A DNA stretch of 64,000 bases, taken from Escherichia coli (GTDB lineage Bacteria > Pseudomonadota > Gammaproteobacteria > Enterobacterales > Enterobacteriaceae). Below are positions 6,001 to 9,000 of the stretch, piece by piece (position 1 is the stretch's first letter; the number at the start of each line of letters is the position of its first letter). Where the stretch lies: the NCBI RefSeq assembly GCF_044324875.1, contig NZ_CP172186.1; one strand, given 5' to 3'. Position numbers: made by a program.

Positions 6001-9000
6001 CCATATTCAACGGCTTCTTTAAGGAGTTCATTTTCCATCGTTTTTTTGCCGAGCAGGCGCTGGAGTTCTTTAATCTGCTTCATGGCAGCAGCAAGTTCAG
6101 AGGCAGGAACGACCTGTTCTCCGGCGGCCACAGCAGTAAGACTTCCCTCCTGGTATTGCTTGCGCCAGAGAAATAGCTGGCTGGCTGCCACACCGTGTTG
6201 CCGGGCTACAAGGGAGACCGTCATTCCCGGTTCAAAACTCTGCTGAACAATAGCGATCTTTTCCTGTGTAGTACGCCGTCTGCGTTTCTCCGGTCCTAAG
6301 ACATCAATCATCTGCTCTCCAATGACTAGTCTAAAAACTAGTATTAAGACTATCACTTATTTAAGTGATATTGGTTGTCTGGAGATTCAGGGGGCCAGTC
6401 TAGCAGATTATGGTGCGCAGTTATACAATAGCAGTAATGAGGAGTCTACTATTTCTCTTGTTATGCCAGATGCAATTGAATGGAACGGAAAGAATACGCC
6501 AAGACGGCAATACATGATAAAATATATTGCCGTATTTAAATATTAAAATTTATTTTTGTAGATCATCTGAATTTTCGGTGACCTTCAAGTTTTATATCGT
6601 TCATTTTATCCAGAGACTCACGTAATGATTCTATATTCCCGTCCTCAACTTTCTTTTTTGCAATATTGATTTCATGTTGTAGTTTTTTTAACTCTTCCTT
6701 ATAATTATCTACAGAAACTTTATCATTAACATCTATCTTTTCAGGAATAATATTCATAGAAGAATCTACAGATTTATCCATCATTTCAAGAGCATTTAAT
6801 AGTGATGATTTATCATTGGAAGATTGTAGAATACTCATACTTTTGGCAAGAGACTGCATGTTTTTATCCAGGCCGGAAGCCAAAGATACGTTGCTGAGAG
6901 ATAAAAAAATAGCTAGTACAGCACCTGAGAAAAATACCTTTTGTTTTATCATTAATATATTCCTGTTCAAAGTTGATTATAGTTATGTCAATTTAAGTTT
7001 ATTATTATGATTTTTTATTTTTGTACTATGAATCTCCTGTATGCTTATATGTGCAGAAAATCTCATTTTATCAAGAAGAATATCAAATTTTCTCCGATAC
7101 TTCTACATACTCCATCATTCATGCTCCTTTTATCCGTGCACCGTAAAACCCCGTCCTTCAGCGGGGATATAAGGCGCTGTTTTCCACCTAACCAGGTGTC
7201 TGCTGCTATTCAATGTATTGGCGGATGACGGATGCCGCCCGTTGAAGCAGGAACCCTCGTCCTTAGGGCGTGGAGGATGTCAAAATGAAAACTTGTGGTA
7301 TGAATCAATCCATTCATCATCCTTTCGGATCATTGCATTCAGTATAACGCTGGAAGAGCCTGGCAATATCACTGTATTGATGGTATTACGCCATGAATTG
7401 CTTATTTCTTAAATACGACATGCACCACAGACAGGCTTTTCCTATACCATCGGAACGAGCGGCAAGAAATAACTTGGTGGCGTGTTTATGTTCGCGCATT
7501 GGCTTTTTAAGCAATTTACCTCTGTTCAATAACGGCAATGCCAGATGATGTGGAATATAACCAATACCGACGTTTTGTTCTATTAAGCTGATTGCCATGG
7601 CGAAGTCAGGAACAAAAATAGGTTTTTGTCCTTCCAACAACCAGGCTTGCATTGGGGGGAAGTTAACGGAGGTATCCCGGATACAAACCGCAGGATAATG
7701 ACGCAATTCACTGTTTTCTAATGGATTCCGCTTCACTGCCAGTGGATGAAGTGGGCTGACGACAAAATCCCATTCTATTTGTCCGACCGGTTCGCTAATG
7801 ATGCCTTCACTGCTTGGTACTGCATGAGGAGCACCGTAGACCAGATCAGCACGTTTACTGTACAGCGCATCCCAGCAGCCGTTGTATACTTCAATATCTA
7901 CCGTCAGTGTTGTTGATGTGAATTGCCGTTCAAAATCTTGAATAAATGACACCAGAAAATCACCAGGTATAATATTGTTCACCGCAATTGTCAGTTCACG
8001 CTCAATACCATCGTGAATCAGCACTGTGTTGCGCTTTAATGCATCCAGATCGCGGAGAATATTTTTGCTATGTTCGATGAAGTAACTCCCCGCCGGAGAT
8101 AATTCAATATATCGTCCCTTACGAATGAACAGTTCAACGCCCAGGGTTTCTTCCGCTTTCTTCAGGGTGTAACTGATAGTAGAAGGGACTTTATTTAACT
8201 GTTCGGCTGCGGTGGTGATGTTCTGGTGTCTGGCGACCAGATGAATAATTCGAATCGTTTCGTCTGAGATGAACATAAGGCTCCCTGGTCAGTGGTAAAG
8301 TGGCTGAATCTCTCCAGATTCAGCCGTAATCATTGCCTGAGTATACCCAGGAATTAGCGGTGTTGACTTGCCCGACTGAGAATCGCATACGCGATACATG
8401 CCACCAGAATGGAGTCAACTGAAGGGATCGTCGTCAGGGTGAATAAGCCTTTTACGGTCATAAAGCCAACCGCTGTGCCTGTGATCCATGCAGCGAATGT
8501 CAGTACTTTAACCTGTGACTCCTGAGTTAACACCGACTCTTGATAGCCATTACGGCGATAAAGGAAAAAGTCAGCGATATAAATTCCGGCAACTGGGGGA
8601 GTCGCGATACCCAGGAACAGCAGAAACGGAATAAACCACGCCATAATATCCATACTGCCTACGATGGCGGAAAGGATACCCAGCGCAACGGTAATCTGCC
8701 ATTTGGGAAAGCGGCTAAGCAGTGTGGAAACTACCAACGTCCCCTGGAACATATTGCCCGCATTACCGGTGACGCAGGCGAATATCAGCAACAGTGCTGC
8801 AGGCATAACCGCACCGAATACTGCCATAGCATTCAGTAAAGAGCCCTGGCCGCTAATGGCACTCGGCGTTGCACCCGCCCAGTATAGCAGAGGGTAGGCA
8901 ACCAGAAACGTCATACCTGCGGCAATCAGAGCATGTTTTCGGTTATGTACAAAACTACCGAAGTCGGGAAGTGTAGCAACCAGCACAATAATAGTGCCAA

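Follow-up and report, generated by a model that had tools for sequence, protein, structure and literature searches.

The window, a 64,000-nt stretch of the Escherichia coli contig NZ_CP172186.1, contains an 8.55-kb segment whose genes all lie on one strand and which is bracketed by two copies of a short, structured direct repeat. The segment encodes a LysR regulator, an NCS1 permease, an allophanate-hydrolase-C-terminal-like protein, carbamate kinase, DUF1116, FdrA and DUF2877 proteins, and a BiuH-like cysteine hydrolase. It is a plasmid-borne nitrogen-catabolism operon, carried on ColV-type plasmids of avian and extraintestinal pathogenic E. coli. The genes between and beside the repeats are these metabolic genes and the regulator, a cytochrome b562 gene and a nikB fragment.

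A repeat search of the window confirmed the original prediction of direct repeats at 7149-7284 and 15835-15970, which share an orientation, are spaced by 8686 bp and are identical at 133 of 136 positions (98%). The mismatches (copy 1/copy 2) are G/A at 7161/15847, G/A at 7174/15860 and T/A at 7257/15943. Folding found both hairpins that had been quoted for the repeats, as well as an unlisted third (7255-7273 and 15941-15959), which is the right-end hairpin of an insertion sequence (IS). The repeats had been described as not recognisable as IS ends; this was wrong, as both ends of an IS609-like element of the IS200/IS605 family are fused in them. According to the IS609 boundaries, copy 1 of the element starts 15 nt further left, at 7134. 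The final repeated base (A at 7284 and 15970) is not part of the IS, whose right end closes with TCAA (7283 and 15969). RefSeq annotation is absent over the 150-bp element in every match. The features are as follows.

7130-7133, plus strand: TTAT target-type tetranucleotide, abutting copy 1 on the 5′ side of its left end, as at IS609 insertions
7134-7283, plus strand: copy 1, a complete IS609 derivative without genes, made up of the left end, the 3′ remnants of tnpA and tnpB, and the right end
7149-7166, plus strand: left-end hairpin CCCCG-TCCTTCAG-CGGGG, shorter than its IS609 counterpart
7188-7233, minus strand: tnpA remnant, the last 14 codons and stop, with an internal stop (IS609 alignment and translation)
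7220-7239, plus strand: GGCGG...CCGCC hairpin, the second of those quoted originally, spanning the deletion junction 7233/7234
7234-7254, plus strand: tnpB 3′-end fragment, 21 nt (IS609 1656-1676), identical to K-12 IS609 at 21 of 21 positions
7255-7283, plus strand: right end by IS609 alignment, with hairpin 7255-7273 and terminal TCAA (7280-7283)
7285-15834, minus strand: bracketed 8.55-kb segment
15831-15834, plus strand: TTAC, a target-like motif seen in the sequence next to the cut left end of copy 2
15835-15969, plus strand: copy 2, missing left-end nt 1-15; its right-end hairpin is a perfect 8-bp stem

Derivation of the repeats from IS609

IS609 is a 1748-bp member of the IS200/IS605 family, with divergently oriented genes for a Y1 (HUH) transposase, TnpA, and for TnpB (insQ). 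TnpA of the E. coli W IS609 matches NF033573 (IS200/IS605 transposase) with 145.7 bits, the cutoff being 55. When aligned with IS609 positions 1-103, 1656-1676 and 1719-1748, copy 1 is identical at 142-143 of its 150 positions (95%). By BLAST, 4387 of 5426 E. coli genomes match unit positions 1-85 with an IS609 left end and tnpA (91-93% identity), and every partial match to the unit is annotated as an IS200/IS605 tnpA or an IS609-like element. The likeness includes the TTAT 5′ flank, the TCAA terminus and the paired hairpin motif CC.CGTCC-TT(C)A-GGGCG.GG. The unit differs from IS609 in lacking 1594 of the 1748 bp, in a left-end 3′ arm that is 2 nt short and a right-end loop that is 1 nt shorter, and in the loss of left-end nt 1-15 from copy 2.

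Two internal deletions gave rise to the element. The first, of 1552 bp, took out most of tnpA and tnpB; the second occurred between CCAC microhomologies, the 42 bp of IS609 that follow the tnpB fragment being deleted between two CCAC repeats. Transposase-coding capacity is absent: beside 21 nt of tnpB there remain 14 tnpA codons, which translate with an internal stop as SVIRQYIE*QQTPG*, compared with SVIRQYIEQQQTPG* in TnpA of the E. coli W IS609. The GGCGG...CCGCC hairpin exists because the deletion junction brought its arms together, the 5′ arm from IS609 90-94 and the 3′ arm from the tnpB fragment that starts at IS609 1656.

The remaining hairpins are subterminal hairpins, not terminal inverted repeats (7149-7166 and 7255-7273 in copy 1; 15835-15852 and 15941-15959 in copy 2). 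By analogy with IS608, the left-end hairpin is presumed to be the putative TnpA-binding hairpin. Its stem has 5 bp (-5.3 kcal/mol), GG having gone from the 3′ arm, while that of IS609 has 8 bp and a TTCA loop (-9.6 kcal/mol). The right end matches IS609 1719-1748 at 28 of 29 positions with one 1-nt gap; in copy 1 its stem contains a T-T mismatch, also found in the E. coli W IS609.

Insertions of IS609 follow TTAT in K-12 (TTTAT/CCGGTG, slash at the junction), E. coli W (CTTAT/CCGGTG) and Klebsiella pCuAs (GTTAT/CCAGTG). The element ends at TCAA in K-12 and W, and the W boundary is confirmed by an intact yoaG empty site in 4317 genomes. Two independent insertions and this empty site thus give the boundaries as TTAT/...TCAA/, with no target duplication. 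Copy 1 looks like such a normal insertion: TTAT abuts its left end, its right end reads TCAA/AATG and no target is duplicated. Copy 2 has had its left end cut by 15 nt and its original junction is gone; nothing in the sequence to its left (...ACCCCTTAC) resembles left-end nt 1-15. Judging from IS608, these missing nucleotides would comprise the putative cleavage position and guide nucleotides. A Salmonella IS609-like element is also preceded by TTAC, as is copy 2.

IS608 of Helicobacter pylori is the mechanistic model of the family. TTAC lies 5′ of its left end and TCAA at its right-end cleavage site, the left-end hairpin lies some 15-19 nt in from the end, and target duplication is lacking. 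The element described here shares with it a tetranucleotide 5′ of the left end (TTAT in this case), TCAA and the inset hairpin; host and sequence are different, and recognition by IS609 TnpA is judged by analogy only. Closer in sequence are the tnpA-less IS609-like elements of Klebsiella (pCuAs) and Salmonella (pESI-like), with the layout left end-tnpB-right end. Their left end matches (88-95% identity over about 60 nt), as does their right end, and they are likewise non-autonomous and plasmid-borne, but they carry an intact TnpB gene and presumably a guide RNA, and stand as single elements with no bracketed cargo.

Gene-less IS200/IS605 derivatives are known from haloarchaea and Geobacillus stearothermophilus as palindrome-associated transposable elements, PATEs (PMC3119063, PMC10055086). 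Our element resembles these in having left and right ends with subterminal hairpins, no protein-coding gene and a need for TnpA in trans. PATEs are typically multi-copy and often carry an omega-RNA, whereas this element is found at two loci with no evidence of movement. A literature search of limited coverage found no published IS609-derived PATE, no IS609 miniature element and no description of these repeats. We consider it highly probable that the repeats are non-autonomous, gene-less miniature (PATE/MITE-type) derivatives of an IS609-like element that act today as a passive substrate for homologous recombination around the operon.

Distribution, and the repeats as a repeat family or RNA

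The full unit was found in 138 of 5426 complete E. coli genomes at a median of 2 copies, with 248 of 269 places plasmid-borne. About 134 genomes have the two-copy form, on varied plasmid backbones and chromosomal fragments. Among the 5426 E. coli genomes, PLSDB, the GTDB representatives and metagenomes, full-length copies always lie at the same two loci or at their recombinant, and in none of these collections does the element occupy several unrelated sites. An exact scan of 100,044 species-representative genomes for the deletion junction gave 0 matches. The metagenome scan yielded six stretches on five contigs, four of which show the same two contexts and the fifth (L095) the single-copy form described below. 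In one metagenome context an inserted IS1 lies 8 bp from the left end.

Short GC-rich hairpins and an intergenic position are also what a ubiquitous enterobacterial repeat (REP/BIME, ERIC/IRU, box C) would offer, present twice here by chance. The original prediction had named BLASTN copy number as a check, with a REP/BIME-like ubiquity counting against its own reading; the unit proves to be rare and fixed at two loci, largely on plasmids, and its partial matches all belong to IS200/IS605 tnpA or IS609-like elements. We give the chance-repeat explanation almost no credence. Membership in REP/BIME or ERIC/IRU was refuted by copy number together with IS609 homology.

The same counts, and the lack of any Rfam match, give no support to the suggestion that the unit is a dispersed small-RNA or palindromic-unit repeat. 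It is also very improbable that the unit is a functional structured RNA or regulatory element, whether a small RNA, a terminator or insulator of the operon, or a TnpB guide-RNA (omega/reRNA) gene. Such a role would suit its three hairpins and the position of copy 1 just downstream of the last gene of the operon on the minus strand, where the left-end hairpin is followed by TTTTAC; moreover, miniature IS200/IS605 elements often encode omega RNAs (PMC10055086). The overall fold is nevertheless unexceptional (z = -1.5 and -2.8), one hairpin arose by chance at the deletion junction, and two near-identical copies carry no covariation signal. Rfam searches of the window, the unit and IS609 at gathering and permissive thresholds returned nothing relevant, the sole matches being two that fell below threshold, HgcC (17.7 bits) and, within tnpB, RAGATH-18 (29.5 bits). 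When the surroundings of both copies were scanned for promoters and terminators, no site lay within the units, and the left-end hairpin with its TTTTAC falls short of the terminator criterion. A complete guide-RNA scaffold is unlikely because only 50 nt of the tnpB-proximal right end are left (IS609 1656-1676 and 1719-1748), with the 42-bp internal deletion between them.

Mobility of the elements and of the bracketed package

Because no full-length copy was found beyond the two loci and their recombinant, we class the element as a derivative of the IS200/IS605 family and make no claim that it is an active member. There is no sign of present mobility. The ends are weakened, the left-end stem by its reduction to 5 from 8 bp and copy 2 by the loss of left-end nt 1-15, and on the IS608 model TnpA has probably ceased to recognise the element. 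Were TnpA to excise copy 1, the predicted donor joint is TTAT/AATGAAAAC.

The pair could in principle act as a compound single-strand transposon, in which IS609 TnpA in trans would pair the two outermost ends, the left one in copy 1 and the right one in copy 2; we rate this as quite improbable. The 8.8-kb segment 7134-15969 would then move by peel-and-paste, possibly during the single-stranded stage of conjugation, an outcome to which we assign a similarly slight chance. The products predicted for the whole package would be a donor joint TTAT/ATACCCGCC and a circle junction TCAA/CCGTGC or TCAA/CCGTGCACC. What speaks for such a transposon is that only in the outer pair does a full-length left end preceded by TTAT go together with a right-end hairpin free of mismatches (8-bp stem and TCAA), and that TnpA donors are common, to judge by the IS609-type left ends in 4387 of 5426 E. 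coli genomes. Against it, the left-end hairpin is shortened in both copies, and longer IS200/IS605 elements excise less efficiently. A search for the package at other sites, or for its empty site, found the segment always within the same outer flanks and no one-piece empty site joining cytochrome b562 directly to nikB in PLSDB, where 4 of 4 full-coverage records keep one element. IS609 itself showed no transposition in K-12 mutation-accumulation lines (PMC5009759), which also counts against movement of the package.

The arrangement of two directly repeated miniature elements around cargo resembles that of integron mobilization units; the present ends belong to the hairpin class of IS200/IS605, and a single location is known for the package. 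Integron mobilization units are flanked by MITEs, with terminal inverted repeats, depend on DDE transposases and are found at several sites with target duplications. The repeats are ordinary IS remnants, mobile-element debris, and the pair would gain interest only if it could be mobilised as a unit; in that event E. coli virulence plasmids would harbour a peel-and-paste transposon that carries cargo.

Loss or gain of the operon

The repeats had also been proposed as recombination sites for loss of the module. This finds support for general homologous recombination, in that single-copy chimeric plasmids exist, and none for a site-specific system, which is absent nearby: no integrase or recombinase for att-like excision is adjacent to the repeats, the nearest tyrosine recombinase ORF being at 60390-61280.

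Plasmid pE32-3, the E15 and E16 plasmids, pTB-nb2 and the metagenome contig L095 carry one 150-bp element between the cytochrome b562 flank and the nikB flank. The four plasmids are near-identical, chicken-derived and from China. At the three mismatch positions the single element reads G,G,A, so that its left part is as in copy 1 and its right part as in copy 2. Eight two-copy plasmids have this same long nikB flank at 99.8% identity, and a two-copy parent is therefore available for deletion.

The 135 bp of 98% identical direct repeat around the 8.55-kb operon would be a substrate for RecA-type homologous recombination. Recombination between the repeats would excise the operon as a circle, with one chimeric element staying behind. 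The product to expect is a lone chimeric copy between the outer flanks, and we infer that the event was a deletion, not an integration, and was probably RecA-dependent. The three mismatches are uninformative on direction, as deletion and integration both predict G,G,A; only the distribution, about 134 genomes for two copies against one narrow plasmid lineage for one, favours deletion.

The opposite course, in which the repeats are a scar of acquisition, starts from one ancestral element, with the cytochrome b562 gene on one side and the nikB remnant on the other, and has a circle bearing the operon and a left-truncated copy integrate by one homologous crossover within the element. We think this unlikely, though it has several points on its side. 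The single-copy element has every appearance of an ordinary insertion, with TTAT, a full left end and TCAA, and the G,G,A pattern of copy 1 left part and copy 2 right part is predicted here as well. The truncated left end belongs to the inner copy, as expected if it was brought in by incoming DNA, and the operon allele with its private flanks was never seen without the repeats among the genomes compared. On the other hand, the single-copy form is limited to the four near-identical plasmids and one metagenome contig while about 134 genomes have two copies, and acquisition requires an unobserved donor and an unexplained circle formation.

Over 7392-15578 the segment shares 94.5% identity with a chromosomal island found in 1522 E. 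coli chromosomes (~28% of E. coli) that lack the repeat; 7285-7391 and 15579-15834 occur only in the plasmid version. This level of identity indicates that the plasmid operon is a second allele of the island, imported rather than copied from the host. The BEN2908 paper covers only the chromosomal homologue of the operon. In 80 related loci compared through carbamate kinase, no donor with the unit, IS609 ends or the private flanks was found; the closest were the E. coli chromosome (96% amino acid identity), Lelliottia (87%) and Citrobacter (85%).

With these results the 150-bp elements can now be annotated as IS609-derived remnants. Under the deletion that we favour, the repeats explain concretely why some plasmids have the carbamate-kinase/oxamate-carbamoyltransferase-like operon and their close relatives show a clean absence of it.

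The repeat pair and its plasmid setting

A repeat search of the window returned one family (D10) of direct repeats at 7149-7284 and 15835-15970, 98% identical and 8686 bp apart. Search, reading and alignment agree on the 136-bp, same-orientation pair with three mismatches of the original prediction: 133 of 136 positions are identical, and the copies differ (copy 1/copy 2) by G/A at 7161/15847, G/A at 7174/15860 and T/A at 7257/15943. The window represents an E. coli virulence plasmid of the ColV type. Plasmids from avian-pathogenic and from extraintestinal E. coli strains, p1ColV5155 among them, contain the unit at 100% identity.

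Features of the repeat pair and of the window
Left of copy 1: cytochrome b562 gene
7134-7283: copy 1, complete 150-bp element
Between the copies, all minus strand: LysR regulator, NCS1 (cytosine-permease-like) transporter, small allophanate hydrolase C-terminal-domain-like protein, carbamate kinase, DUF1116, FdrA, DUF2877, BiuH/RutB-like cysteine hydrolase
15835-15969: copy 2, the same element minus the first 15 nt of the left end
Right of copy 2: 3′ fragment of an IncI1-type nikB relaxase gene, interrupted at 16454
16454-17771 (the nikB interrupter), 33953-35076, 47149-48446: IS3-family element, one copy inverted, each with an ALIL frameshift pseudoknot (Rfam RF01497)
18796-28498: carbohydrate cluster (LamB-like porin, fructokinase, GH32 sucrose-6-phosphate hydrolase family, LacI-type repressor)
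38548-39529 and 58885-59867: regions 87-89% identical, 20.3 kb apart, with iteron-like arrays of 17-nt period (39212-39316, 59589-59687); possibly two related replicon or partition regions
43564-47061: AIDA-I/MisL-type autotransporter adhesin
55047-56339: IS91-family transposase
60390-61280: Xer-like tyrosine recombinase ORF

In the chromosome of strain 702/18 (L005 1-3507) GH32 and porin genes adjoin an IS3-cytochrome b562-unit block, which hints that a larger block including them moves as one.

Derivation of the unit from IS609

Positions 1-85 of the 136-bp query match 4387 of 5426 complete E. coli genomes at 91-93% identity in a sensitive BLAST search, always under an annotated ‘IS200/IS605 family transposase’. 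The matched element of K-12 W3110 and of E. coli W, with divergent tnpA and insQ/tnpB genes, is IS609 (1748 bp); the IS200/IS605 transposase model recognises its TnpA, and the TnpB RNA-guided endonuclease model its second gene. K-12 has one copy of IS609, which is classed in the IS200/IS605 family (PMC5009759), with a stop codon within its transposase gene (PMC2891674). Boundaries were set from two independent insertions, each beginning CCGGTGCG and ending GGATGTCAA, flanked by TTTAT and TATCGG in K-12 and by CTTAT and GACACG in E. coli W. Removal of the 1748 bp from E. coli W leaves the yoaG frame uninterrupted again, confirming the boundaries, and the contiguous empty-site sequence was found in 4317 genomes. 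The two insertions and the empty site together show that IS609 inserts 3′ of TTAT, terminates in TCAA and makes no target duplication.

Copy 1, with TTAT (7130-7133) directly 5′, aligns to IS609 in three blocks, identical at 142-143 of 150 positions; the unit ends, which had not been recognised as those of an insertion sequence, are thus IS609 ends.

Parts of IS609 retained in copy 1
IS609 1-103: left end and last 14 tnpA codons
IS609 1656-1676: 21 nt of the tnpB 3′ end
IS609 1719-1748: right-end hairpin and terminal TCAA

The tnpA remnant translates as SVIRQYIE*QQTPG*, against SVIRQYIEQQQTPG* in the intact gene. The second deletion, of 42 bp, is bounded by two CCAC tetranucleotides, suggesting that microhomology mediated it. 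On alignment, the left flank of copy 2 (…ACCCCTTAC) has no similarity to the missing left-end nucleotides 1-15. Directly adjoining this truncated end is TTAC (15831-15834), a target-like motif for this IS group; it may be there by coincidence or as a vestige of an aberrant TnpA event.

Folding recovered both hairpins of the original prediction, and a third absent from its list.

Hairpins in copy 1
7149-7166: CCCCG...CGGGG, the IS609 left-end hairpin
7220-7239: GGCGG...CCGCC, spanning the deletion junction (7233/7234), with no IS609 counterpart
7255-7273: the right-end hairpin

In IS608 the left-end hairpin is the TnpA-binding structure, and by analogy the first hairpin would be so here. The second is an accident of the deletion fusion. 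In IS609 the stem of the left end measures 8 bp and carries a TTCA loop (-9.6 kcal/mol); in both copies of the unit the 3′ arm lacks two G, leaving a stem of 5-6 bp (-5.3 and -6.0 kcal/mol). The right-end hairpin of copy 2 is a perfect 8-bp stem; that of copy 1 has a T-T mismatch, also present in E. coli W IS609.

The suggestion that the unit is a small-RNA repeat found no backing: it has no Rfam match even at permissive thresholds, scans around both copies found no promoter-like or terminator-like site inside the units, and the z-scores of the folding energy (-1.5 and -2.8) are unremarkable. The tnpB-proximal region encodes the TnpB guide RNA in the IS200/IS605 family; since only about 50 nt of it survive, a functional guide-RNA gene is unlikely. 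In the IS609-bearing locus L003 the tnpB 3′ region (4616-4659) gives a sub-threshold match to Rfam RAGATH-18 (29.5 bits; gathering score 44.9) that may reflect the structure of the guide-RNA region, overlapping a stretch whose last 21 nt persist in the miniature element.

Distribution and mobility of the element

Only 138 of the 5426 E. coli genomes have the full unit, at a median of two copies per genome; of its 269 places, 248 are on plasmids. Queries of the unit with 150 bp on each side put every copy in the two contexts of the window or in fragments of these (e.g. a chromosomal cytochrome b562-unit-69 bp-IS1 segment and a chromosomal piece of the copy 2 context). Rare and restricted to two fixed contexts, the unit is not a ubiquitous high-copy palindromic repeat of the REP/BIME kind. 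The deletion junction had no exact match in 100,044 species (one genome per species). A metagenome scan for it found six stretches on five contigs, four with the same two contexts and the fifth (L095) a single-copy form linking the outer flanks. In one of the two-copy contigs an IS1 sits 8 bp from the left end. E. coli genomes, species representatives and metagenomes gave no evidence of movement since the two copies arose.

The element derives from the IS200/IS605 family and works in its manner, with IS609 its closest relative. Among described categories the nearest is that of the gene-less PATEs (PMC3119063, PMC10055086), with which it has homologous ends, subterminal hairpins and the absence of a transposase in common, and copy 1 also a TTAT target without target duplication. 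Multiple independent insertions, the sole functional property testable in silico, were not found, and on both grounds we file it as a decayed IS609-derived miniature in two copies, probably immobile.

Elements without tnpA, in which an IS609-like left end is joined straight to an intact tnpB and right end, are present on more than 800 plasmids of Klebsiella and on pESI-like plasmids of Salmonella (e.g. L087 2485-3806, Klebsiella pCuAs; L088 2485-3820, Salmonella pFSIS1502916). These related non-autonomous derivatives, often unannotated in PLSDB, follow TTAT in Klebsiella and TTAC in Salmonella.

Could the 8.8-kb package instead move whole, as a cargo-carrying single-strand compound transposon? 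Only in the outer pair of ends (copy 1 left, copy 2 right) is a full-length left end paired with a right-end hairpin free of mismatches. In PLSDB the cytochrome b562 and nikB flanks are nowhere directly contiguous, and flank queries of E. coli genomes never showed the package with other outer flanks. Nothing found supports whole-package movement, which we consider very improbable.

Origin and probable loss of the bracketed operon

Window 7392-15578 is 94.5% identical to a segment of 1522 E. coli chromosomes, part of genomic region GR 29, the tkt1 island, of strain BEN2908 (PMC12928451). The unit is absent from these chromosomes, and the 107 bp (7285-7391) and 256 bp (15579-15834) between operon and repeats have no homologue in them or in 80 loci retrieved by carbamate kinase. 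The plasmid operon, whose DUF1116, FdrA and DUF2877 genes are oxamate-carbamoyltransferase-like, is therefore read, from these comparisons, as an imported, diverged second allele of the chromosomal island; in the databases searched this allele is always packaged with both repeats. A second, decayed partial module in p1ColV5155 (L001 1-5257), with frameshifted fdrA and truncated DUF2877, lies beside a gene with ankyrin repeats and a LysR gene that an IS3 element interrupts.

Four RefSeq/PLSDB plasmids (pE32-3, its equivalents in strains E15 and E16, and pTB-nb2; chickens, China; same local gene order) and metagenome contig L095 have a single 150-bp element between the cytochrome b562 and nikB flanks, and no operon. 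This element is chimeric, with G and G at the first two mismatch sites, as in copy 1, and A at the third, as in copy 2. One homologous crossover between the copies, within the 82 bp between mismatches 2 and 3, would be expected to delete the operon and leave just such a chimera. A suitable two-copy parent exists, since eight two-copy plasmids share a long (1.5-kb) nikB fragment with the single-element lineage at 99.8% identity. Integration of a circle into a single-element ancestor would yield the same pattern, but the single-copy form is one narrow lineage whereas the form with two copies is found widely and on various backbones; from this we infer the direction of the event, and deletion is the favoured reading. 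The proposal that the repeats are recombination sites for excision of the module thus holds as far as the chimeric, operon-less plasmids fit a homologous crossover, its direction being the inferred part. The likely present-day effect of the repeats is that they make the operon deletable by homologous recombination.
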